From NCBI GenBank assembly GCA_964513145.1, contig CAZELK010000011.1:1-26922 (forward strand): a stretch of DNA of 26,922 bases, in the 5' to 3' direction. A program made the position numbers and the translations under genes. Shown piece by piece: positions 1 to 25,477 of this stretch. Every line of letters begins with the position of its first letter. Positions within the stretch are counted from its first letter, which is position 1. The notes under the pieces are model-generated. The model was not told the DNA's origin, ran no database searches, and saw only the letters and a program-made list of their open reading frames with translations. Origin of the DNA: Candidatus Woesearchaeota archaeon (lineage in GTDB: Archaea > Nanobdellota > Nanobdellia > SCGC-AAA011-G17 > JACPIM01).

Positions 1-577
1 TATTTATTGGAAGTCCTTTTTTCAAAATCATGTAAACATCATAATGGTCTCTCGGCTTATTTCTTCCAATTGTTGCAGCTGTTTTTTCAGCAATCAATTC
101 TTCTTCTGCAACAGTCTTTATAGAAAATTCTGGTATAAATGGAACATAAAAATGATTTATTTTATGAAGTTCAGATGGCAATGATAGTTTTGCTCTTTGG
201 TTTAGGTCAATAAACACATTATCTTTTCCACCATCAAAACTTACATATTCAACAACAATTCTAAGAAAACCTTCTACGTTTTTATCTTCAGTAATCTCCC
301 CAAATAATCCTGATTTTTTAATGATATCAATTATTTCTTTTTGGACATCAGCTACCTTCGCTGTTAATGAAAAATCAATATCTTCAGATAGTCTTGCATG
401 ATCTAGAAATATTTTATTTAGAGCAGTTCCGCCTTTAAAATAAATTCCATTAACATCTTTTATTAAATAAAGAAGCAAGGTAAGGAAATAATCTTTTGTT
501 AGTTTTCCCCTGTTGAATTTAGTTTTTGCTAAAATATCTTCAAATTCTATATTATTGATTCTCTTAATCTCAGCCAT
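1..577 (-). CDS. AbiEii/AbiGii-family nucleotidyltransferase toxin (type IV TA); runs off the left edge
   Basis: Not in the ORF track; translated by hand from ATG at 577: MAEIKRINNIEFEDILAKTKFNRGKLTKDYFLTLLLYLIKDVNGIYFKGGTALNKIFLDHARLSEDIDF..., later IEELIAEKTAATIGRNKPRDHYDVY. FKGGTAL, R.SEDIDF and EK...R.KPRD.YD are AbiEii motifs. Overlaps the end of the upstream antitoxin by 31 bp. Confidence 0.9.
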   Translation of the reverse strand, partial: MAEIKRINNIEFEDILAKTKFNRGKLTKDYFLTLLLYLIKDVNGIYFKGGTALNKIFLDHARLSEDIDFSLTAKVADVQKEIIDIIKKSGLFGEITEDKNVEGFLRIVVEYVSFDGGKDNVFIDLNQRAKLSLPSELHKINHFYVPFIPEFSIKTVAEEELIAEKTAATIGRNKPRDHYDVYMILKKGLPIN

Positions 578-1104
578 TTTTTTGATTCCTTTTTATTTAG
601 TATTTTAAATTCATGATTCGCTATTTTTTTGATAATGTATTTATTTTTATCAATTCTCCTGATTCTATGAAAATATATTTTAGTATTAAGCAAATTTATT
701 TTACCCTGTTTTTTAGTTATGAATACTTCTAGCGTAAATGGAACTTGATTAGTAAGTCTCCAATAATTTGCAGAAGTCCAGCCACCGATATAATATTCTC
801 CTGAATTACATATTTCATCTACAATAACAAATTCATGAGGAATCCATGCACCAGATTTTGCTTTTATTGGAACAAGATAATACTTGTTTTTATTAAGTTT
901 TATTATTCTTTTCTTTTTTACAAGACGTTTAATTGTGTTATATCTCTGAGATTTATTTTCGAAAAATTGTTCTATTTCTTTTATTGTAAAAAAATACTTT
1001 TGGTAAAATTCAAGCCATGCTATTATTTTTACTTCTAGTTTAGAGAGACCTTTTATCTCAATTTCACTGTTTTTTATGCCTTTTTCAAATTTTTGCTTTT
1101 TCAT
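547..1104 (-). CDS. AbiEi-family antitoxin / transcriptional regulator (type IV TA)
   Basis: N-terminal wHTH-like region (FFTIKEI...IKRLVKKKRIIKLNKNKYYLVP) followed by YYIGGWTSANYWRLTNQVP, matching the AbiEi pattern; lies directly upstream of AbiEii. Confidence 0.82.
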   Translation of the reverse strand: MKKQKFEKGIKNSEIEIKGLSKLEVKIIAWLEFYQKYFFTIKEIEQFFENKSQRYNTIKRLVKKKRIIKLNKNKYYLVPIKAKSGAWIPHEFVIVDEICNSGEYYIGGWTSANYWRLTNQVPFTLEVFITKKQGKINLLNTKIYFHRIRRIDKNKYIIKKIANHEFKILNKKESKKWLRLRESII

Positions 1105-1192
1105 TTTTATCTCAGTTACATTGATTAGTCATATTTTAACTAATTCATGTACCTTATAAACTTGCTGTTTTAGACTAAAAACAAAGATTAAA

Positions 1193-1290
1193 CGGGCCCG
1201 CACGGATTTGAACCGTGGACCCTCTGCTTAGAAGGCAGATGCGCTATTTACCCGAATAAATCAATTTTCACCAGGCTGCGCTACGAGCCC
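1193..1290 (-). tRNA. tRNA-Arg(TCT) with a 23-nt non-canonical D-loop intron (1248-1270)
   Basis: Minus strand folds as GGGCTCG/CGGGCCC acceptor, GCGC/GCGC D-stem, TCTGC-CTTCTAA-GCAGA anticodon arm and CACGG-TTCAAAT-CCGTG T-arm. Removing TGAAAATTGATTTATTCGGGTAA gives D-loop AGCCTGGATA and a 75-nt tRNA; no encoded CCA. Confidence 0.93.
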
Positions 1291-2416: not shown

Positions 2417-2486
2417 TTTATCTGGGTAACTTTTGGCTTTTAGCCTATAACATTTTATCTTTAGTTTGTAAAATTTTAATTTTATA

Positions 2487-2792
2487 TTAAAATTTATCTT
2501 GTTTTTTCTTTATTTCTTCTTCAGTTACATCTATAATATCAATTCCTTCTTCATCTATAATTTGCTGCATTTCCCAGTATTCTACACCCAAAATCTCAGC
2601 AGCTTCCCTAATGGTTAGTTTTTTTTCCTTTAGTGATTCAATTACTTTTATTTTAAGCTCTTTTTTTAATCCTTCTGCTATTAACTGTCTTATTGCAGTA
2701 GATCTATCTTCTAGTTTTTGTTCTGCATAAAAATCTATTCTTTTTAAAAGATTAGGATATAATGTTGTATTAACTCTAACTACCTTTTCCAT
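2487..2792 (-). CDS. UPF0175-family antitoxin (RHH-like N-terminus plus C-terminal HTH)
   Basis: DRSTAIRQLIAEGLK (RHH-like) and KLTIREAAEILGVEYWEM (UPF0175 HTH); 2 bp downstream of the PIN gene. Confidence 0.8.
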   Translation of the reverse strand: MEKVVRVNTTLYPNLLKRIDFYAEQKLEDRSTAIRQLIAEGLKKELKIKVIESLKEKKLTIREAAEILGVEYWEMQQIIDEEGIDIIDVTEEEIKKKQDKF

Positions 2793-2794
2793 TT

Positions 2795-3277
2795 TTATAA
2801 ACCTCCGACTTTCTCATATAATTTTTTTGCCTTTATAGACAATCTTTTTTGCTGCACTAATTTTTGGAGTAATTCACCGAGTTCTTCTTTTGTTATTCTT
2901 TTTGTGTTAGCTAAATTCAATAAAATATCAGGAGTATTTCTAATTTCAATTTGCTCTGCTTTTGCCCTTCTTCCTAACTTAACATCGTCAACAAAGAGAT
3001 AATCTTTTTTCTCCTTTGCGAAACTTATTACTTTTGAATCTATTTCACTAACTCCTGAAAATCTTTCTGGTTTTTTTAAATTATTAACAAGTATTATTTT
3101 TTCATCAAACATTTTCTTAATTTTTATGGCGTCAGCATATCCTAAATCAATGCCTTTTTCTACGCATTCTTCATATACTTCTTGTATGGTTACAATTTCT
3201 GTTTTCAGTAATTTGAGTAAATCTAATCCCTGTATTTTTGCAAAGCTAATAATAGTTGAGGAATCAATTGACGCCAT
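2795..3277 (-). CDS. PIN-domain toxin, DUF3368/VapC-like
   Basis: IDSSTII, VYEEC, EIDSKVI and LFVDD.K.GRR.A supply the PIN acidic residues. ATG 3277 preferred over 3301 because a TATA-like TTTAAATA lies ~27 bp upstream. Confidence 0.82.
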   Translation of the reverse strand: MASIDSSTIISFAKIQGLDLLKLLKTEIVTIQEVYEECVEKGIDLGYADAIKIKKMFDEKIILVNNLKKPERFSGVSEIDSKVISFAKEKKDYLFVDDVKLGRRAKAEQIEIRNTPDILLNLANTKRITKEELGELLQKLVQQKRLSIKAKKLYEKVGGL

Positions 3278-3291
3278 ACTTAGTATGTCGT
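3271..3291. promoter_or_regulatory. imperfect palindrome over the PIN start codon, putative autoregulatory operator
   Basis: acgccatact-t-agtatgtcgt, with 9/10 arm complementarity, between the TATA-like box (3304-3311) and the ORF. Confidence 0.5.
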
Positions 3292-3384
3292 AAGCATACA
3301 AAGTATTTAAATATATTGGTTACTAATTATTATTCATTAGTGGTAAATAGATAGATTTATAAATTATTTATTTTCTTTAAGATT

Positions 3385-3999
3385 ATGGCAAATCTATTAA
3401 ATTATAAAAGCTCTAACTTAGATATGGAGGTTAAAGAAGAAAAAATTCCTTTAATTATAAAACAAAGAAGATTTTTAGAACAATTAATAGAAGGCAATTT
3501 AGATAAAGTAAAAGAATTAGCAAGTTTGCCTGAGGAAGAAAGAGCTAAAATAGTTAGAGGTTATTGGAAAGGCATAGATTTTGATACTTATTTAGAATTC
3601 TTAGGACTTACTCCAGCTTGGGAATTAAAAGACGAACCAAAATATATTAGAGAAAGAATAATTTACCTTAGCTTAAGAGGCATAAGGGAAGGAGTATTAC
3701 AAATAGCTGAAATAGATCGAATCACAGATCCGGAGAAAATAGCTAGACAAGGAAGTACTTATTTTAGACGAAAGCTTTTAGATCCTTTAGATAGAGAACC
3801 AGCAGATATCAATGAAGAAATTAGAAGAAAAATTGGTATAAATCCAATTAGAGAAGAACTTAAAAAAAGATTAGTAAATGACCCAGTTTTAAATGAATAT
3901 TTTAATAACAAAGGGTATACTTTATTATTTGATGCTTTTTGTGCTGGCATTTCATTAGGCATATCAAGGCAATATGACGGAAACTTCTCAGAAGAATAA
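3385..3999 (+). CDS. hypothetical protein (204 aa, helical)
   Basis: Long open frame with ATG; no recognised motif. Confidence 0.65.
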   Translation: MANLLNYKSSNLDMEVKEEKIPLIIKQRRFLEQLIEGNLDKVKELASLPEEERAKIVRGYWKGIDFDTYLEFLGLTPAWELKDEPKYIRERIIYLSLRGIREGVLQIAEIDRITDPEKIARQGSTYFRRKLLDPLDREPADINEEIRRKIGINPIREELKKRLVNDPVLNEYFNNKGYTLLFDAFCAGISLGISRQYDGNFSEE

Positions 4000-4596
4000 T
4001 CTTTTCTTTTTAATTATAACATCAGTATGCTCAATAACCCAGATTTTCTCAAAAAAATACGTCCCAAACTCAGTAAAAGAAGATTTAAATTCAGTTTCTA
4101 ATTTGTTATATTGCTCTTCTGTTAAAATTTCTTTTTCTTTTAATTCTCTTAATCTAATTTTTGGAAAATCAAGATTAATATCACGAAATCTAAAAGATCC
4201 ATTTAATTGATCAGATAGAAATTTATTATTATAAAATATTCTAACCCAATAATCTCTATTATTAAATATATCTGCAATAATTGTATTATTTTTAGTTTTA
4301 AATCCAATTTTTAATAATTCTTCTAATAATCTTCTTACCTCTCCTCTAGTTGGTATATTTTCCTTTCCTTTTACCAAAACAGTAAATTTATTTTCATCAT
4401 TTGGAATTCTGGCACAATGCTTTCTGTAAAAATCATTAAAATCAATTTCAGAATAAATTATTATTTCAGCTTCTGTTCTTTGTTGAGCCTTATTTTGCTT
4501 TAATAATTCCAAAACTTCTAACTTGTCTTTTATTATAGAAAAATCCTTTAATCGAACAAAAACTTGCTCTGGTTTTTCTTTTATCACAAATCCCAT
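3988..4596 (-). CDS. hypothetical protein (202 aa)
   Basis: Long open frame; first gene downstream of the att-like repeat at 4699. Confidence 0.6.
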   Translation of the reverse strand: MGFVIKEKPEQVFVRLKDFSIIKDKLEVLELLKQNKAQQRTEAEIIIYSEIDFNDFYRKHCARIPNDENKFTVLVKGKENIPTRGEVRRLLEELLKIGFKTKNNTIIADIFNNRDYWVRIFYNNKFLSDQLNGSFRFRDINLDFPKIRLRELKEKEILTEEQYNKLETEFKSSFTEFGTYFFEKIWVIEHTDVIIKKKRLFF

Positions 4597-4626
4597 AAAA
4601 TTCAGATCTGAATAAAATATATGATA

Positions 4627-4719
4627 TTTTTGATAAAAATTACTTAGAAATCTGAGAATTCTTTCACACAGGGCTACCAGCTACTCGCTCAGTAAATGTA
4701 TCGGGCCTACGAGGATTCG
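4627..4719 (-). repeat. att-like repeat: 21-bp tRNA-Arg(TCG) 3' core (4699-4719) plus conserved downstream arm
   Basis: tatcgggcctacgaggattcg is identical to 25336-25356. The flank gctacc-agctactcgct...gtaaatg matches gctaccgagctactcgct...gtagaag at 25293-25335. ttttgataaaa lies ~60 bp from the core in both copies (4628-4638 and 25268-25278). Confidence 0.88.
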
Positions 4720-4724
4720 TTTCT

Positions 4725-4805
4725 TCAGTTTTTAGAATTTAGCAGTTCTTCTGCCTTTGAACAATAGGGACAGCCAGTTAAAGTGTATATTATTACTTCA
4801 GCCAT
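4725..4805 (-). pseudogene. truncated glutaredoxin (GrxC-like N-terminus)
   Basis: Hand translation MAEVIIYTLTGCPYCSKAEELLNSKN*: CPYC active site in the usual beta1-alpha1 context. Stops after 26 aa, 5 bp before the tRNA-derived core. Confidence 0.85.
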
Positions 4806-4879
4806 AAGCCATAATTTATTTTTAAATATATAATTATTTTGACAGAAAACTATTTAATTATGCGCTTTCTAATAAATTT

Positions 4880-20052: not shown

Positions 20053-20544
20053 ATGGAATTAATAATCCTTGGCTTAGATCCTGGTTCTACTATAGGTTAT
20101 GCTGCTTTAAATTTAGATGGGGAATTACTTAAAATAGAATCTTCAAAAAACAGCAATTTAAATCAAACTATATCTAAAGTAAACATGCTGGGAAAGATTG
20201 TAGTTGTTGGCACGGATGTAAATCCAGCACCTAAATTTGTTGGAAAGGTTGCTAGCAATTTGGGGGCTGAGATAGTTGAACCTAAGGATGACTTGTTATT
20301 AAAATATAAGAAAAAATTAACAAAGGAGTTTTTAAAAGATAAAGAGATCAAGATTAAAAATAAACATGAGCTTGATGCTTTAGCTGCTGCGTTAGCTGCT
20401 TTTAAACATTACAAACCCTTATTTAATAAAATCGATAATCATTTAAATCAAATAAATAAACTATATTTAAATAAAAAAATTAAAAATACTGTTTTAGTAA
20501 ACAAAATGTCAATAAAAAAGGCGTTAGAGAAATATGGTTGTTAA
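20053..20544 (+). CDS. DUF460-family RNase H-fold protein
   Basis: ILGLDPGSTIGYAALNLDG, VVGTDVNP.P..V.K, HELDALAAA. Confidence 0.85.
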   Translation: MELIILGLDPGSTIGYAALNLDGELLKIESSKNSNLNQTISKVNMLGKIVVVGTDVNPAPKFVGKVASNLGAEIVEPKDDLLLKYKKKLTKEFLKDKEIKIKNKHELDALAAALAAFKHYKPLFNKIDNHLNQINKLYLNKKIKNTVLVNKMSIKKALEKYGC

Positions 20545-20836
20545 TGTTGATTTTAAAAGGGATGCATTCTTATTATTTTGTTCATTATTATTTTATTTAG
20601 CTTTTTTATTTTTAAATATAGCGCAAGATAGCGATGCACGAGAAAATCAAAGTTTCAATGACTATGACACACCGCCAGAAATATGCAATAATATATATGA
20701 AGACAGAATTTTTAAAGATGAATCTGGACATGAAATATTAAGATGTGTAAAGCTAGGCATACCAGAAATTACTATTTATCCCAAAACTTGCCAGGAATTA
20801 AAATTTATATCTGATTATCCTTTAAAGGAATGTTAA
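20534..20836 (+). CDS. hypothetical membrane-anchored protein
   Basis: N-terminal TM helix, small Cys-containing extracellular domain. Confidence 0.55.
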   Translation: MVVNVDFKRDAFLLFCSLLFYLAFLFLNIAQDSDARENQSFNDYDTPPEICNNIYEDRIFKDESGHEILRCVKLGIPEITIYPKTCQELKFISDYPLKEC

Positions 20837-20903
20837 TTCTTAGTTCTAAAGTATTGTAAGAATATACAAATATTTTTAAATTATAGGTTAATTCTGAAGT
20901 AAA

Positions 20904-21035
20904 ATGGTATTGAAATGCAAGGAATGTGGAAAAGAATTAAAAGTAATAGTTGACAATAATCCCTATAATTCTGATGTTTATTATATTGGAAACAAGGTTG
21001 TTTGCGGTGAATGCTTTAAAAAACACAAAAACTAA
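20904..21035 (+). CDS. 43-aa zinc-finger microprotein
   Basis: Below the ORF-track cutoff; hand translation MVLKCKECGKELKVIVDNNPYNSDVYYIGNKVVCGECFKKHKN*, with CxxC-x25-CxxC. Confidence 0.75.
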   Translation: MVLKCKECGKELKVIVDNNPYNSDVYYIGNKVVCGECFKKHKN

Positions 21036-21247
21036 GCTAAGTCTATTATTCTTCCAAGACCATCCCACCTAATCACTTTCTTTTTACCAAATATTTCTTC
21101 CTTCGATACTTCTTTTAACGGCTTTTTTATATATTTTAATCCGCTGCTTTTATAATTGAAAAAATCATATATCAACGTAATTTGATTTGTTTCAGAAACT
21201 ATTATTGTTTTTTCTTCAAAAAAATATATTCCGTCTTCCACTAACAA
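21032..21247 (-). CDS. hypothetical protein, possibly a 5'-truncated remnant
   Basis: TTG start, begins just beyond the diverged att-like repeat; no motif recognised. Confidence 0.4.
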   Translation of the reverse strand: MLVEDGIYFFEEKTIIVSETNQITLIYDFFNYKSSGLKYIKKPLKEVSKEEIFGKKKVIRWDGLGRIIDLA

Positions 21248-21282
21248 AAAAGAATTTTAATAATTTATAAATATTTATGTGT

Positions 21283-21382
21283 GGGTCTACAACGATTCGC
21301 TTCTGATTTAGGTTGTAGCTTGTTGCATTTAATATGTAGTAATTTATTTTTTGACATTTTTATCAAATTCTTCATCCTCCTT
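21283..21382 (-). repeat. diverged att-like repeat with upstream arm (SD + MSKNK micro-ORF, 21265-21357)
   Basis: Core gggtctacaacgattcg is 14/17 identical to the tRNA 3' core. The arm cttctgatttaggttgtagct is 19/21 identical to 23290-23310. Both share atgtcaaaaaataaa and aaggagg on the minus strand. Confidence 0.82.
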
Positions 21383-21394
21383 ATTATTCCATAA

Positions 21395-21550
21395 TTATTT
21401 CATTTTTCGTTTTTGAATTTCTTTTAAAAAATTATTTTCTTTTCTGTTTTCTTTTGTTTCTTTTCCTATATCATTTTTAGAAATATTTTTCTCTTTAGCT
21501 GTTTTCCACATAATTTTAAAAGTATTTTCAAATTCAGTAAAGTCTTTCAT
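21395..21550 (-). CDS. 51-aa hypothetical protein cotranscribed with the TA pair
   Basis: Hand translation MKDFTEFENTFKIMWKTAKEKNISKNDIGKETKENRKENNFLKEIQKRKMK*; aggt SD-like sequence upstream; starts 6 bp after the antitoxin stop. Confidence 0.5.
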   Translation of the reverse strand: MKDFTEFENTFKIMWKTAKEKNISKNDIGKETKENRKENNFLKEIQKRKMK

Positions 21551-21556
21551 TTTTAC

Positions 21557-21862
21557 CTATTTTGTCGGAATTAATTTTATTCCTTTTTCATCTGGAATCA
21601 AGACTACTTCTTCTTCATCTTTTAATTTAAATTTTTCTACAATTTCTTTTGGTATTCTTAACCCTAAACTTAAACCCCATCTTGTTAATTTAACGTGGTA
21701 GTTTTTCATAACTCTATATTTTTCTGCAATATTATGCAACTGATTCATATTTAGAATTTCTTCTCCACATTTTTGACATTTAAAATAAATATATTCTATT
21801 CCTTCTGGGGTTTTGTTAATTAATTCTTTCATTTCTCCATTACATTCAGAGCATTTTTTCAT
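21557..21862 (-). CDS. antitoxin: YgiT/MqsA-type zinc finger fused to AbrB/MazE DNA-binding domain
   Basis: CSEC...CQKCGEEIL finger; RWGLSLGLRIPKEIVEKFKLKDEEEV is an AbrB fold. Confidence 0.85.
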   Translation of the reverse strand: MKKCSECNGEMKELINKTPEGIEYIYFKCQKCGEEILNMNQLHNIAEKYRVMKNYHVKLTRWGLSLGLRIPKEIVEKFKLKDEEEVVLIPDEKGIKLIPTK

Positions 21863-22089
21863 TTTTCCTCCTCAATTGTGAATATTTTTATTTTTGTTCC
21901 AATAATTTGACCAACACAAATAATTGTTCTTTTACTTCCTTCACTTATGAACTTGACACCGTGCTTTCCAAATCTTTCTATTTTTCCTTTGATTAAAGTG
22001 TCTTCTATTAAATCTGGATTGATTCCTCTTTTCATAGCTTGTATGAAAACGTGATGTTTAATTTCTAAGTCATACTTGCTTATATCCAT
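21859..22089 (-). CDS. DUF4258-family (RelE-like) putative toxin
   Basis: HVFIQAMKRGINPDLIEDTL...KIKIFTI; ATGA overlap with the antitoxin. Confidence 0.72.
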   Translation of the reverse strand: MDISKYDLEIKHHVFIQAMKRGINPDLIEDTLIKGKIERFGKHGVKFISEGSKRTIICVGQIIGTKIKIFTIEEEK

Positions 22090-22099
22090 TTAATATCAC

Positions 22100-22119
22100 T
22101 TAATATTATAGAATATTAA
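22100..22119. promoter_or_regulatory. inverted repeat, putative TA operator
   Basis: ttaatatt-atag-aatattaa between a TATA-like box (22124-22131) and ATG 22089; all-AT arms, so weak. Confidence 0.35.
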
Positions 22120-22210
22120 ATAGTATTTAAATATTTGCATTTGAATTTTATTCAAGAAAAGTTTAAATTCTTAAATAACATAAACTTTATTAGAAAATCT
22201 TTCAATAATT

Positions 22211-23236
22211 ATGGTTGATTTAGAATTAAAAGAAAAAGTAGAAGAAATAAGGAGAATTAAAGCTAATCGATATTTAGGTACAAAGGATGCTTTAAATTTA
22301 ATTAGACTAAAAGAAGAGTTAGAAGATAGACCAACAAAGATTTCTGATTTGATTAATAAAGAATTGGGGTATGCTAAATATAAGGCTACTCCCGAAGGCA
22401 TAGCTTATATTGATAGGATGGAAAAAGAATTTGGAGGCTCTTTAAGAAGTTCCAATTCTTTTATTCCTACAGAAAATTTAGAAAAAAATATTAGAGAGGT
22501 ATTTCAAGCTTTAGGACTTGGTTTATGTTCTGTTTTTGTTGAGTATGAAGAAAGAACCGGATTCATTAGAAAAGAGATTGATAAAAATATTGTTAAAAGA
22601 TTAATAGATTATTATAAAAAAGCTAATGAAATAGGTGTTGATACTGAAGAAAAATTTAAGCAATTTGTAGTGGACCAATATATATTACCCCTATTCGAAG
22701 GTAGGGTAAAACCTGTTTATATAGACTTTTTTAAGAGTAATCCAAATATTGTTATTGCTAAAGGTGAAAATCTATCTCTTTCTTATAGAAAAGAAAAATC
22801 TCTTAATAACTATTTAATAAAAAAGAAGATTGAAGAAAAAATACCAAAAAGAATTTTAAATGATTTAGTTGGAAGAGAAAAAAAACACGGAAGAGAACTT
22901 ATTGATATTACTCTTGAAGACCATTTGGAACTTTTTTCTATAAAAAGTATGTTCGGAGATGAAAGAGTAATAGATTCGAAAGTTATCTACGAATATATCA
23001 TAAATGAAGATCCAGAAGAAGTATATAATTCTATAATATGGGAATTAAATAGTAGAATAACTGGTTGTTCATCTGTTTTGGCAGAAAGCAAAATTCCACA
23101 AAGTGCAGATAAAAAGAATTTTCTGAAAGAAGTAAATCAAAATCTTCAGAAACTTAGATTAATTCGAGAGGCTTATGGAAGAGAAAAAAGATATGTTATA
23201 CTTAAAATAAAGAATTTTATGCCAAGAAATGAATAA
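22211..23236 (+). CDS. hypothetical protein (341 aa)
   Basis: Long open frame; no recognised motif. Confidence 0.7.
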   Translation: MVDLELKEKVEEIRRIKANRYLGTKDALNLIRLKEELEDRPTKISDLINKELGYAKYKATPEGIAYIDRMEKEFGGSLRSSNSFIPTENLEKNIREVFQALGLGLCSVFVEYEERTGFIRKEIDKNIVKRLIDYYKKANEIGVDTEEKFKQFVVDQYILPLFEGRVKPVYIDFFKSNPNIVIAKGENLSLSYRKEKSLNNYLIKKKIEEKIPKRILNDLVGREKKHGRELIDITLEDHLELFSIKSMFGDERVIDSKVIYEYIINEDPEEVYNSIIWELNSRITGCSSVLAESKIPQSADKKNFLKEVNQNLQKLRLIREAYGREKRYVILKIKNFMPRNE

Positions 23237-23268
23237 ATAAAAAGATATGACGCTTTGGAATAGAAACA

Positions 23269-23355
23269 TATCGGGCCTACGAGGATTCGCTTCTGACTTG
23301 GGTTGTAGCTTTTGGCTTAGCTGGTAGTTTATTTTTTGACATTTTTATCCTCCTT
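23269..23355 (-). repeat. attR-like repeat: 21-bp tRNA-Arg(TCG) 3' core (23269-23289) preceded by conserved arm with SD and ATG (23342)
   Basis: Core identical to 25336-25356; arm homologous to 21300-21382. Confidence 0.9.
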
Positions 23356-23364
23356 ATTTATTAG

Positions 23365-24108
23365 CTATTTCTTCTTTAATTTCCAAATTGAAAATAAAGG
23401 AACTTTTCTATAAAATTCATATTCTTTTGGGTCAATTTTCTTAGCACTACGTAAAGGTTTTGTATCTTCATAATCAATTACTTCAAAACCATATTTTTAT
23501 GTAAGATTAATAATTGTTTTCGGTTTTATAATATAATTAAATATGTTTATTTTTTTACCGCTTTTTGTAGTATAAATTATTTCAGTTTTATCTGTTGTAA
23601 AATAATTCCTTATTCCAAGAACTTTGTATTTCTTTCCTTTTATTTTCATACCTTCTCCAGCTCTTGCTATTGGATTTCCAGTAGAAAAAATAAAAATTCC
23701 ATTTGGTTTTAGTACTCTTGCTATTTCTTGAATTGGTTTATCTAACTTTTTTAAATAATGTAGTGACAATGAAGCGAAAACTATATCAAAATTTTCATTA
23801 AATGGTATATTTATTCCAGACCCAATTTTTATTTCCGTATTTGGATTATTTCGTTTTGCTATCTCAACCATTTCTGGCGAGATATCAAATCCTTTAATAA
23901 TTGCTCCTTTAGATTTTAATTTTTTAATATAAATACCTGAACCACAACCCCAATCTAATATTTTTTTATTTTTAACATTTCCAAGCATCTTCATCATTGA
24001 AGGCATTTCTGTCATTTCGTTGTAAAAAGATTTTTTTGTTCTTGTTTTATGATATTCTTCTGCAAGACCTGAATACATTTTAATTGCATCTTTTTCGTCT
24101 TTGTTCAT
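23365..24108 (-). pseudogene. class I SAM-dependent methyltransferase interrupted by an in-frame TAA (23497-23499)
   Basis: ILDWGCGSG, GFDISPEMV, FDIVFASLSLHY. The frame continues past TAA for 43 codons (KYGFEVIDYEDTKP...KVPLFSIWKLKKK*) with a typical MTase C-terminus. Confidence 0.8.
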
Positions 24109-24653
24109 TTTTTCTTATCCAATTCATTTAATAAAATATTCATCTCAAGCAAAAATTGTTTTGCTCTTTGTAGAGAAGTTTTAGCTTTTGCCTGTTTGTC
24201 AATATCTTCGGTCCTGTATTGGATTTTACTTCTCTTTGCTTTCTCTTGGTCAAAGGATTCAATTAAAGAATCAGCTTTTATTCCAGCCAAATTAAGAGCC
24301 TCATCTTTGCTGTCTTCATATCCTTCAATTAAAGTCTCTTTTAATTTTCCTCTTGCGTATATTATCAAGGCATCAGCAGTTACTTTATGTGCAATTTTCT
24401 CTCCGACTCTATATCCTAATTTGCGAAGAACAGCATTAGCAATATAAAACATTGAATAATAAGAGCAAACAATAACCCATAAGTCAGATATTCTTTCTAT
24501 ACTTAATTTTTTTGCTGAGTCTATACTCTCCTGAGCATTTCTTAACAAAACTCTAAGAGCATCTATGTTTAGAGGTTCTTTTTTTAATAAGCCTTCTTCC
24601 AAATAAGATTTAACATTAGTTTCAGCCTCTTTTATTCTATCTTTCGTTAACAT
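24105..24653 (-). CDS. HEPN-domain protein (UPF0332-like), toxin partner
   Basis: WVIVCSYYSMFYIANAVL, H..T..AL, and R-X4-Y (RSKIQY) at the HEPN catalytic position. Confidence 0.85.
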   Translation of the reverse strand: MLTKDRIKEAETNVKSYLEEGLLKKEPLNIDALRVLLRNAQESIDSAKKLSIERISDLWVIVCSYYSMFYIANAVLRKLGYRVGEKIAHKVTADALIIYARGKLKETLIEGYEDSKDEALNLAGIKADSLIESFDQEKAKRSKIQYRTEDIDKQAKAKTSLQRAKQFLLEMNILLNELDKKK

Positions 24654-25227
24654 TTTTTAATAGCCTATAATACTCCTCTATTCCGATTAATATAAAATTC
24701 TTTTTAAGGACTTCGCTTACAACACTAAATTCTTTGCTTGTTGCCATTAGAATAAAACTTTCATAAGTTACAGGTGTTAAGTGGATATCTTGAGGAAATA
24801 TACTTAGTTTGTCTTGAACTTTTTTAAAGTGTTTCTCATCAGAAATAAGAAGAAAATCTATGTCTGAATGTTTTGTTGCTGTTCCTTTAGCATAGCTTCC
24901 AAATAAAAGAATAATAAATGGAAACTCTAATTTTGACAAGCTATCATAAATTACTGGAAATTCCCTTTTCTTGAATAAATTCTCTCTTCTCAAATACTCT
25001 GCTTTGAAAACCAAATCATTAAATTTATTATTGAATGAACATAAAGTAGTATTCCCTACTTTCTTTAATTCTACAATATTTTCTTTCTCAAGAACTTTTA
25101 AAGCATTATAAGCAGATTTATAATTTATTTTTCTTTGCAAGGCTATTTTTCTTATGCTATAAATTTCTTGTTTATTTTCAATTAATAACTTTAATATTTC
25201 TATTTTCTCACTAGGTTTATTGTCCAT
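24637..25227 (-). CDS. wHTH + minimal nucleotidyltransferase (MNT) antitoxin
   Basis: YSIRKIALQRKINYKSAYNALKVL (HTH); LLFGSYAKGTATKHSDID is GS-X10-DXD; ATG at 25227. Confidence 0.9.
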   Translation of the reverse strand: MDNKPSEKIEILKLLIENKQEIYSIRKIALQRKINYKSAYNALKVLEKENIVELKKVGNTTLCSFNNKFNDLVFKAEYLRRENLFKKREFPVIYDSLSKLEFPFIILLFGSYAKGTATKHSDIDFLLISDEKHFKKVQDKLSIFPQDIHLTPVTYESFILMATSKEFSVVSEVLKKNFILIGIEEYYRLLKNVNER

Positions 25228-25231
25228 ATTA

Positions 25232-25249
25232 AACCATAATATTATGGTT
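25232..25249. promoter_or_regulatory. perfect 18-bp palindrome, putative operator of the wHTH-MNT
   Basis: aaccataatattatggtt equals its reverse complement; lies between the BRE-TATA (25258-25271) and ATG 25227. Confidence 0.65.
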
Positions 25250-25338
25250 AAGAAACATATATAAATCTTTTGATAAAATCTTCGTCGTTTCGTTCCCACT
25301 AGCTACCGAGCTACTCGCTAATCGCTCCGTAGAAGTAT

Positions 25339-25477
25339 CGGGCCTACGAGGATTCGAACCTCGACCAGAAGCTATCTCCTAAACTTTTGAAAAAGTTTAA
25401 TCAAAGATTATCTTTTGCTTAAGCTTTTTCTAAAAGCTTACCGAAGGCTACTGTTCTGTCCATTAAACTATAGGCCC
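25339..25477 (-). tRNA. tRNA-Arg(TCG) with a 67-nt intron at 37/38 (25374-25440)
   Basis: GGGCCTA/TAGGCCC acceptor, GTTT/GAAC D-stem, GTAGC/GCTTC anticodon stem (one U-U), loop CTTCGG|A, CGAGG-TTCGAAT-CCTCG T-arm; 72 nt mature. Central BHB helix CTTC/GGAG with bulges GG|T and AT|A. Confidence 0.92.
25380..25440. repeat. two inverted copies of the palindromic repeat forming the tRNA intron
   Basis: taaacttttgaaaaagtttaatcaaaga (25380-25407, +) versus taagcttttagaaaaagcttaagcaaaaga (25411-25440, -). Confidence 0.85.

Follow-up and report, generated by a model that had tools for sequence, protein, structure and literature searches.

Probable serial insertion of small recombinase-less cassettes at a tRNA-Arg gene of a Candidatus Woesearchaeota archaeon

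How do two gene cassettes of about 2 kb, neither of which encodes an integrase, come to be arrayed in a row behind the 3' end of a tRNA gene? The question is raised by the tRNA-Arg(TCG) locus of a tiny, groundwater-dwelling Candidatus Woesearchaeota archaeon (contig CAZELK010000011.1, here C11, of assembly GCA_964513145.1). The stretch of DNA analysed, referred to below as the window, is this entire contig (26,922 nt, or 26.9 kb), and the source genome (G000; 978 kb, 28% GC) is 98.8% complete. An initial annotation had described positions 21283–25477 as a tandem array of cassettes, each carrying a toxin-antitoxin (TA) pair, that had accumulated at the tRNA 3' end. Comparison with related metagenome-assembled genomes (MAGs) identifies a 4.05 kb segment of this region as a genuine insertion with exact boundaries, and serial insertion of trans-dependent, recombinase-less cassettes at 21300–25335 is the explanation that we consider probable. 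The related MAGs that bear such elements belong to Candidatus Woesearchaeota and stem from groundwater and Rifle sediment.

The tRNA-Arg(TCG) locus and its empty counterpart

The tRNA-Arg(TCG) gene lies at 25339–25477 on the minus strand, contains a 67-nt intron and is taken as the attB site that now forms attL. It scores 50.6 bits against Rfam RF00005, and its orthologue was aligned in four relatives. ARAGORN failed to call the gene in a default run and, with introns allowed, reports tRNA-Arg(tcg) with a 67-nt intron after position 38, i(39,67). According to Rfam and ARAGORN, the gene has been regenerated intact. The repeated core is the 21-mer CGAATCCTCGTAGGCCCGATA, which extends from the T-loop through the discriminator base and then covers three more bases (ATA); core copy 1 (25336–25356, minus strand) accordingly consists of the last 18 nt of the tRNA followed by ATA. 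The exact recurrence of the tRNA 3' end 2067 bp downstream, reported in the initial annotation, is borne out at 21 of 21 positions by core copy 2 (23269–23289, minus strand), which marks the junction between unit 1, next to the tRNA, and unit 2; none of 100 shuffles gave a match. The diverged copy described a further ~1990 bp on was likewise recovered 1990 bp past core copy 2, at 21283–21299 (minus strand, 14/17 identical). A third exact copy, which the annotation had missed, lies at 4699–4719.

The empty site is found in a sister species represented by the same-genus Woesearchaeota MAG G001. On its syntenic contig (C16), the genes o639, o229, ProRS, DUF460, o100 and o43 are followed by about 300 bp, tRNA-Arg(TCG) and a coenzyme A (CoA)-ligase-like gene (ACS). 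The encoded proteins are 56–88% identical to those of the window (ProRS 74%, DUF460 72%), with o100 giving a partial match of 41%. No unit is present between o43 and the tRNA in G001, and the flank that follows this tRNA aligns with the native flank beyond the degenerate copy of the window, which identifies 21283–21299 as the original tRNA 3' end (attR), pushed away by 4.05 kb of incoming DNA. The repeats are not a product of assembly, since Logan assemblies from two separate runs match window positions 20244–25364 and 21830–25441 at 100%, across both junctions.

The locus also differs unit by unit among relatives, as the annotation had anticipated for successive insertions: it holds two units in G000, none in G001 and an AbiEi gene in G008, a MAG of a neighbouring genus that is 98% complete. 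The order of events can be read from the cores. The proximal core is matched at 21/21 positions and the distal one at 14/17 beside the native flank, which indicates that unit 2 entered first and unit 1 later, in agreement with the earlier proposal that the distal unit is the older one.

The intron of the tRNA gene (25372–25438) contains a palindromic AAGCTTTT..AAAAGCTT element that is repeated at dozens of loci in G000 and related genomes, with query intron positions 40–68 and 76–101 matching. The element looks like a shared sequence family of bulge-helix-bulge (BHB) introns. A variable spot lies about 1 kb from the tRNA: in G003 (C11; L119, 1077–2883) the orthologues of o100 and o43 enclose a 279-aa nucleotidyltransferase-like gene and a gene for a 321-aa metallophosphoesterase, both of which are missing between o100 and o43 in G000 and G001.

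Cassette ends and cargo

In the orientation of the tRNA, both downstream cores are preceded by a common arm, here termed arm A. Arm A1 (23290–23369, minus strand; nhmmer 2.8e-10) and arm A2 of unit 2 (21300–21383, minus strand; nhmmer 1.2e-11) are both P-type arms and share 80.5% identity over 82 nt, in line with the arm of ~65–90 bp that the initial annotation had placed ahead of both repeats. An nhmmer profile of arm A detects four good copies in G000, namely A1, A2, C12:8933–8993 and C1:166720–166777, and a weak fifth copy at window positions 2426–2462. On C1, an intact tRNA-Arg(CCT) is located 2.4 kb upstream of the arm, and the arm is succeeded by the 3' end of that tRNA repeated with 2 mismatches; on C12, tRNA-Lys(CTT) is located 1.8 kb upstream, and a degenerate tRNA 3' fragment comes after the arm. 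The arm was also found at four places in G001 and in G008, so that its occurrence apart from the array, which the annotation had asked about, is established.

The 5' part of arm A (AAGGAGG...ATGTCAAAAAATAA) corresponds to the end of a HEPN reading frame (..KEDKNVKK*) that survives there as a relic, and the tail ..KEDKNVKK is intact at the same bases in the units at G000:C12 and G008:C15. Arm A1 retains this relic though the adjacent gene of unit 1 is now a methyltransferase, and so does the arm of unit 2, where the neighbour is a 51-aa open reading frame (ORF). The relic common to the arms shows that the cassette ends share descent, and its retention suggests that ~90 bp beside the core travel with the cassette.

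At the opposite end of unit 1, directly downstream of the tRNA, lies the P'-type arm F1 (25281–25338, minus strand; nhmmer and alignment), a segment of ~55 nt that is GC-rich within the 28% GC genome and had been missed by the annotation. Five copies of arm F are detected in G000 by nhmmer: after tRNA-Arg(TCG), after the tRNA-Arg(GCG) on C5, after tRNA-Lys(CTT), after the displaced tRNA fragment on C5 and after the core at 4699. In G001 and G008, alignment reveals no F1 behind the orthologue of this tRNA; F1 therefore came with the element, and among 201 genomes of the order BLAST finds arm F only in G000 and G001. Unit 2 has a different P'-type arm, P'2 (23234–23268, minus strand), which contains TTCTATTCCAAAG and is 85.7% identical to two junctions on G001:C6. 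This TTCTATTCCAAAG arm follows core copy 2, the tRNA-Arg(CCT) on C1 and two G001 junctions. The complete A-core-P'2 junction (23234–23359) is 87% identical over 132 nt in G001:C6, where the neighbouring cargo is different.

Several other readings of the arms were rejected. An SSV-type int(N) half was prompted for arm A by an AAGGAGG-N7-ATG that reads into the core, in one frame in three copies; it was ruled out because the other copies are frameshifted, the conserved start is the HEPN C-terminus and the genome has no PF16795 match. The same AAGGAGG...ATGTCAAAAAATAA segment was considered as a ribosome-binding site with start codon and rejected in favour of the HEPN relic. A derivation of arm A as an inverted, degenerate core plus F was not convincing either, as only the 10-mer TAGCTGGTAG is common to both (z=4.3 in one of eight comparisons, ≤2 in the others). 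Arm F is not recognisable as a structured RNA (RNAalifold only −2.5 kcal/mol; z=0 for the single fold), nor as a native tRNA trailer, being absent after the G001 and G008 orthologues and present in 2 of 201 genomes.

Taken as a family, these small cassettes measure 1.7–2.8 kb and comprise about ten units in three genomes. Their ends are constant, with arm A, about 70–90 bp long, on one side and arm F or the TTCTATTCCAAAG arm on the other, and their cargo varies and consists mostly of TA pairs. Further family sites are tRNA-Arg(GCG), tRNA-Arg(CCT) and tRNA-Lys(CTT), distributed across G000, G001 and the neighbouring genus. When the 24 detectable tRNAs of G000 were scanned for a displaced 3' copy within 12 kb and with ≤4 mismatches, only Arg(TCG), Arg(CCT) and Lys(CTT) had one; the displaced copy of tRNA-Arg(GCG) is more degenerate. 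The array on G001:C6 starts with a partial tRNA-Arg(GCG), arm F, two MNT/HEPN pairs and A-core-P'2, and continues with a 352-aa ORF and others, a 79-aa/101-aa pair and a further A-core-P'2. G008:C15 and G001:C4 each have MNT and HEPN genes together with an arm A that is followed by a tRNA 3' fragment. At the head of the G001:C6 array (L021, 6869–6960), the tRNA-Arg(GCG) copy lacks its 5' exon and adjoins an IMPDH gene without an equivalent in G000.

The cargo of unit 1 agrees with the initial annotation, which had named an MNT-HEPN pair and a methyltransferase, and is supported by Pfam and PADLOC. The MNT protein (24637–25227, minus strand; 196 aa from the ATG at 25227) carries an N-terminal winged helix-turn-helix and matches PF01909 (1.5e-9), PF18765 and PADLOC PDC-M05A, with a GS...DxD motif in its translation; the longest ORF extends to 25299, and the Logan gene call is 196 aa. 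The HEPN gene (24105–24653, minus strand) overlaps the MNT gene by 17 nt and encodes a putative RNase toxin with an R-x6-H motif (RVGEKIAH). The protein matches PADLOC PDC-M05B and, at 2.6e-4 and 21.5 bits, falls just under the cut-off of 22 for PF05168; it is 61% identical to the copy on G001:C6. Judged from these domains and motifs, the two genes fit a putative MNT-HEPN TA pair. They are followed by a class I S-adenosylmethionine (SAM)-dependent methyltransferase (23497–24108, minus strand; PF08241, 1.5e-22).

Unit 2 contains a TA pair between two orphans. The pair (21557–22089, minus strand) consists of a 76-aa putative toxin (21859–22089) and a 101-aa antitoxin (21557–21862) with a Zn-ribbon and an AbrB/MazE domain (PF04014, 2.9e-6), the genes overlapping by 4 nt. 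The YgiT-AbrB-like antitoxin and the two orphans named in the initial annotation were thus recovered, but its assignment of the toxin to DUF4258 is only a lead: the 76-aa protein has no Pfam match at E≤5, and its language-model neighbour clusters carry PF14076 in 12–37% of their members. The smaller orphan, of 51 aa (21395–21550, minus strand), has no family match and was called as a gene in an independent assembly. The larger one, of 341 aa (22211–23236, plus strand), has no match in Pfam or PADLOC and no recombinase motifs, and its sole match among 5.8 billion proteins is itself. This ORF occupies a position typical of integrases and was considered as a new recombinase; the candidate was rejected, as no homologue and no domain were found and the AF2 model (pLDDT 38) is unusable. 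Across the family, cassettes carry complete operons in either orientation.

The 76-aa/AbrB pair of unit 2 is 94.1% identical at the DNA level, over 573 nt, to its counterpart on G001:C6, as against 70–79% for the flanking housekeeping genes. This far closer resemblance of the TA pair indicates recent movement. At the other end of the window, in an AbiEi/AbiEii unit, window positions 786–1160 are 90.7% identical in DNA to sequence downstream of the tRNA-Arg(TCG) of G008, a different genus. This AbiEi-like and AbiEii TA pair (2–1104, minus strand) lies after tRNA-Arg(TCT) and runs off the contig end; the tRNA-Arg(TCT) itself (1193–1290, minus strand) has an insertion in the region of the D-loop, and Rfam reports 1193–1253 only.

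A third family unit in the window (2417–4810, minus strand), recognised by its core and its F and A-like arms, sits at a site without a tRNA. It comprises a truncated glutaredoxin-like ORF, the core at 4699–4719, arm F3 (4644–4701), ORFs of 202, 204, 168 and 101 aa and a truncated A-like arm (2426–2462). The unit is absent from the syntenic site of G001, where a 95-aa ORF, 108 bp and a rhodanese gene succeed each other, and its G001 homologue is found at tRNA-Arg(GCG). The glutaredoxin-like ORF (4726–4803, minus strand; CPYC motif) is cut after 26 residues, exactly where core copy 3 starts.

Distant HEPN homologues occur in 107 of 240 genomes of the order; among the best 18 loci, none below 86% identity is accompanied by a downstream arm A or tRNA fragment. 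Members of another HEPN subfamily (46–50% identity; L131, L133 and L134, from G172, G119 and G037) have a conserved GC-rich non-coding stretch downstream, AACGCCCGCCCCCACGACTAAC...CAACTCAAAAACTCTTCG, in these three genomes, which belong to different families.

Mechanism, recombinase search and rival explanations

The arrangement of arms and cores suggests a mechanism in which the circular form of a cassette would carry an attP site composed of arm A, a copy of the tRNA 3' end and a P' arm. Its partner in recombination would be a tRNA-Arg or tRNA-Lys gene, in the segment between T-loop and 3' end, whereupon the 3' copy brought by the element would rebuild the tRNA and the old 3' end would be moved downstream, behind arm A. 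At the locus studied here, unit 2 (341-aa ORF, 76-aa/AbrB pair and 51-aa ORF) was inserted first, and unit 1 (MNT, HEPN and methyltransferase) later into the regenerated tRNA, so that the newest unit is the one next to the tRNA. The catalyst was presumably a site-specific, probably tyrosine, recombinase provided in trans, whether from the host or from a helper outside the MAG; excision would yield circles, and the TA pairs may stabilise the cassettes by addiction. The successive integration of small non-autonomous units proposed in the initial annotation is supported by the empty site, the arms at other loci and the independent assemblies, and none of the circumstances that it had listed as speaking against it, such as uniform gene content in relatives or an arm confined to the array, was encountered. 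As it had also noted, the block of identity begins in the T-loop, a possible place of crossover.

The search for the recombinase itself covered the genome of origin and its family. A six-frame search with PF00589 identifies three genes in G000 (on C12 and C1) and none on the window contig, PF16795 has no match in the G000 genome, and neither profile matches within any unit or within ~1.5 kb of any arm. A XerA-type gene is common to G001 (on C18), G002 (on C2) and G008 (on C52), with 68–71% identity. G000 and G003 lack it and instead encode a 287-aa tyrosine recombinase, 79% identical between the two genomes and 28–30% identical to XerA. In G000 its gene (C12:12296–13159; L005, 1162–2025) is syntenic together with a 212-aa neighbour. 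The 287-aa enzyme may have replaced Xer, or it may be a candidate for the helper on which the cassettes would depend; the helper could equally be a Xer-like enzyme of the host or be encoded by an element that the MAGs do not contain. On the same contig, just upstream of the cassette-bearing tRNA-Lys(CTT), a 209-aa ORF (C12:6000–6628, minus strand) appears by eye to resemble TnpB/OrfB (IS200/IS605) in its N-terminal part.

A number of observations weigh against serial insertion by a recombinase acting in trans. Within the 16 family genomes searched, none of the 29 tyrosine-recombinase loci has an A or F arm within ~1.5 kb, so that the recombinase with matching arms for which the initial annotation had suggested looking was not found, and no helper emerged. 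G008 holds units and possesses a single tyrosine recombinase, which is XerA-type. Arm A meets the core through a T-stem-like half-site (AGAAG) that is 2 nt shorter than that of the tRNA, which is awkward for a crossover in the T-loop. The unit at 2417–4810 occupies a non-tRNA site, has a truncated arm A and no second core, and therefore lacks flanking core repeats. On G000:C5, the MNT/HEPN module is inverted relative to its tRNA-Arg(GCG), and a reverse-complement TTCTATTCCAAAG arm replaces arm A before the displaced tRNA-Arg(GCG) fragment (C5:66400–66470; L124; L063, 1290–1370); this inverted junction is also present in a Rifle metagenome contig. The inverted unit and the non-tRNA unit imply that general recombination also reshapes the arrays. 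Scans of genome, viral and metagenome collections for the arm pattern returned only the same Woesearchaeota lineages and chance bacterial matches, and this confinement to the genus and one neighbour leaves current activity unproven. The few public contigs contain no circular junction or population-level empty site; all contigs recovered by exact-protein look-ups for variants, empty sites or circles were identical to the window, and one apparent variant end proved to be a Nextera adapter.

These points bear on how the cassettes are to be explained otherwise. They could be dead remnants of larger integrase-bearing elements that decayed in place and left immobile cassettes, by the route from which cis-mobilizable elements (CIMEs) arise or by "gene capture." Archaeal elements are documented to lose their integrase once integrated (PMC8371274), and the standard proposal for the origin of CIMEs is decay (PMC5704250); the degenerate distal core (14/17), the HEPN relic in arm A, beside which cargo has been replaced or deleted, and the missing helper would all fit. 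Yet no integrase fragment is found in any of the roughly ten units in three genomes, all of which have kept both arms, and their sizes fall in the narrow range given above with constant arms around wholly different cargo. As the proximal core is moreover still 21/21 and the TA pair is much closer between species than the housekeeping genes, which points to recent movement, we regard decay as unlikely.

It is also conceivable that no site-specific enzyme takes part at all, and that circles or fragments bearing a tRNA 3' copy (plus F) come and go through RadA-dependent homologous recombination over 21–75 bp of common sequence. At the tRNA-Arg(GCG) loci attL and attR do share up to ~75 nt (core plus F), exchange of modules by homologous recombination has been proposed for tandem archaeal elements (PMC8371274), and the inverted C5 unit and the copy at 2417–4810 resemble products of general recombination. 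At tRNA-Arg(TCG), however, the shared segment is just 18–21 nt, the P arms are conserved on the side without homology to the target, which homologous recombination does not require, and the junction of arm and core falls at the identical position in independent copies; such an origin of the array is very improbable. In G002, G003 and G008 contigs end at this tRNA or close to it, which shows that the region is hard to assemble, and the repeats might be suspected to have arisen in assembly or by plain tandem duplication of chromosomal DNA. This reading is effectively refuted by the two run-level assemblies that cross both junctions without a mismatch, by units that share their ends only and no genes, and by the cleanly empty site of G001. 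Serial insertion of recombinase-less cassettes therefore remains the reading that we favour; the initial annotation is largely borne out in the history and layout that it described, but the mechanism is a proposal. Whether the cassettes form a working system is a more tentative matter: that ~2 kb modules with standard ends are serially inserted at tRNA anchors and exchanged between loci by a chromosomal, possibly Xer-like, recombinase is a possibility that we consider less likely than not.

Relation to known systems and significance

The nearest known kinds of element are the bacterial CIMEs and the tandem integrations of archaea. As in other elements that target tRNA genes, core repeats bracket the insert and a relative has an empty attB, but the present units lack an integrase of their own beside an att site. 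CIMEs, known from Streptococcus and other bacteria, are att-flanked elements without an integrase that accumulate one after another at tRNA genes (PMC5704250; the work of Pavlovic 2004 and of Bellanger 2011 is cited there). The present units likewise have attL and attR flanks, no integration or transfer genes, a tandem arrangement at a tRNA 3' end, a presumed dependence on an outside recombinase and, often, putative addiction modules. No helper that recognises the same att site was found for them in the 16 genomes of the family. They differ in their DPANN archaeal host, in their much smaller size of ~2 kb and in the absence of a known integrase-bearing relative with the same att site. Several tRNAs are used (Arg TCG, GCG and CCT; Lys CTT), and the units seemingly form a family with constant ends and swapped cargo and not a set of independent decay products. 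Archaeal elements are known to enter a regenerated att site one after another and to lose their integrase after integrating (PMC8371274, PMC6563490). Tandem proviruses, plasmids and casposons are alike in that successive elements re-use the regenerated site, whereas they encode their own integrase or casposase and span 5–50 kb (PMC6563490, PMC8371274).

The arrays recall integrons in consisting of small recombinase-less cassettes with a recurring junction of ~130 bp and the newest cassette beside the anchor, and the layout that had led the initial annotation to call the array integron-like therefore stands. The likeness ends there: the anchor is a tRNA with no intI or attI beside it (the array adjoins the tRNA and the CoA-ligase-like gene), and the cassettes are full operons, unlike the promoterless cassettes driven by a Pc promoter. 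Nor is there an attC-like fold, as four A-core-P' strands and one core-F strand fold no better than their shuffles (z −0.40 to +1.18).

IMEX elements, among them CTX, TLC and the gonococcal island, exploit the Xer recombinases of their hosts. Like these, the cassettes have no integrase and form tandem arrays at one site, and a host tyrosine recombinase may act on them, the sole one of G008 being XerA-type; they differ in using a tRNA 3' end and not dif, and their core has no evident dif-like inverted repeat. Archaeal elements with SSV-type ("suicidal") integrases, and the "gene capture" linked to them, were reportedly treated by She and colleagues in 2001. Such elements (reviewed in PMC8371274; PMC7253208) share the archaeal host, the tRNA target, direct repeats of the tRNA 3' end, the trapped state and the need for an exogenous integrase for excision. 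Here, by contrast, the int(N) and int(C) halves and PF16795 are absent, and the ORF in arm A is a HEPN tail whose frames differ between copies.

Little has been described of the mobile elements in the tiny genomes of DPANN archaea. The cassettes presented here form a defined family of very small elements with recognisable ends, occupied and empty sites in sister species and signs of recent exchange of a TA pair. They offer substrates for finding an archaeal recombinase that acts in trans, in the form of an attP of ~150–200 bp and a tRNA attB, and a route to testing whether TA and defence genes of DPANN archaea move as cassettes. For genome annotation, they account for the contig breaks at tRNA-Arg genes in MAGs of this group, and they mark tRNA 3' fragments as possible miscalls of annotation pipelines. 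If the cassettes do form a working system anchored at tRNA genes, it would operate in the manner of an integron without being related to integrons, and symbiont genomes of ~1 Mb could use it to shuffle toxin-antitoxin and defence genes.

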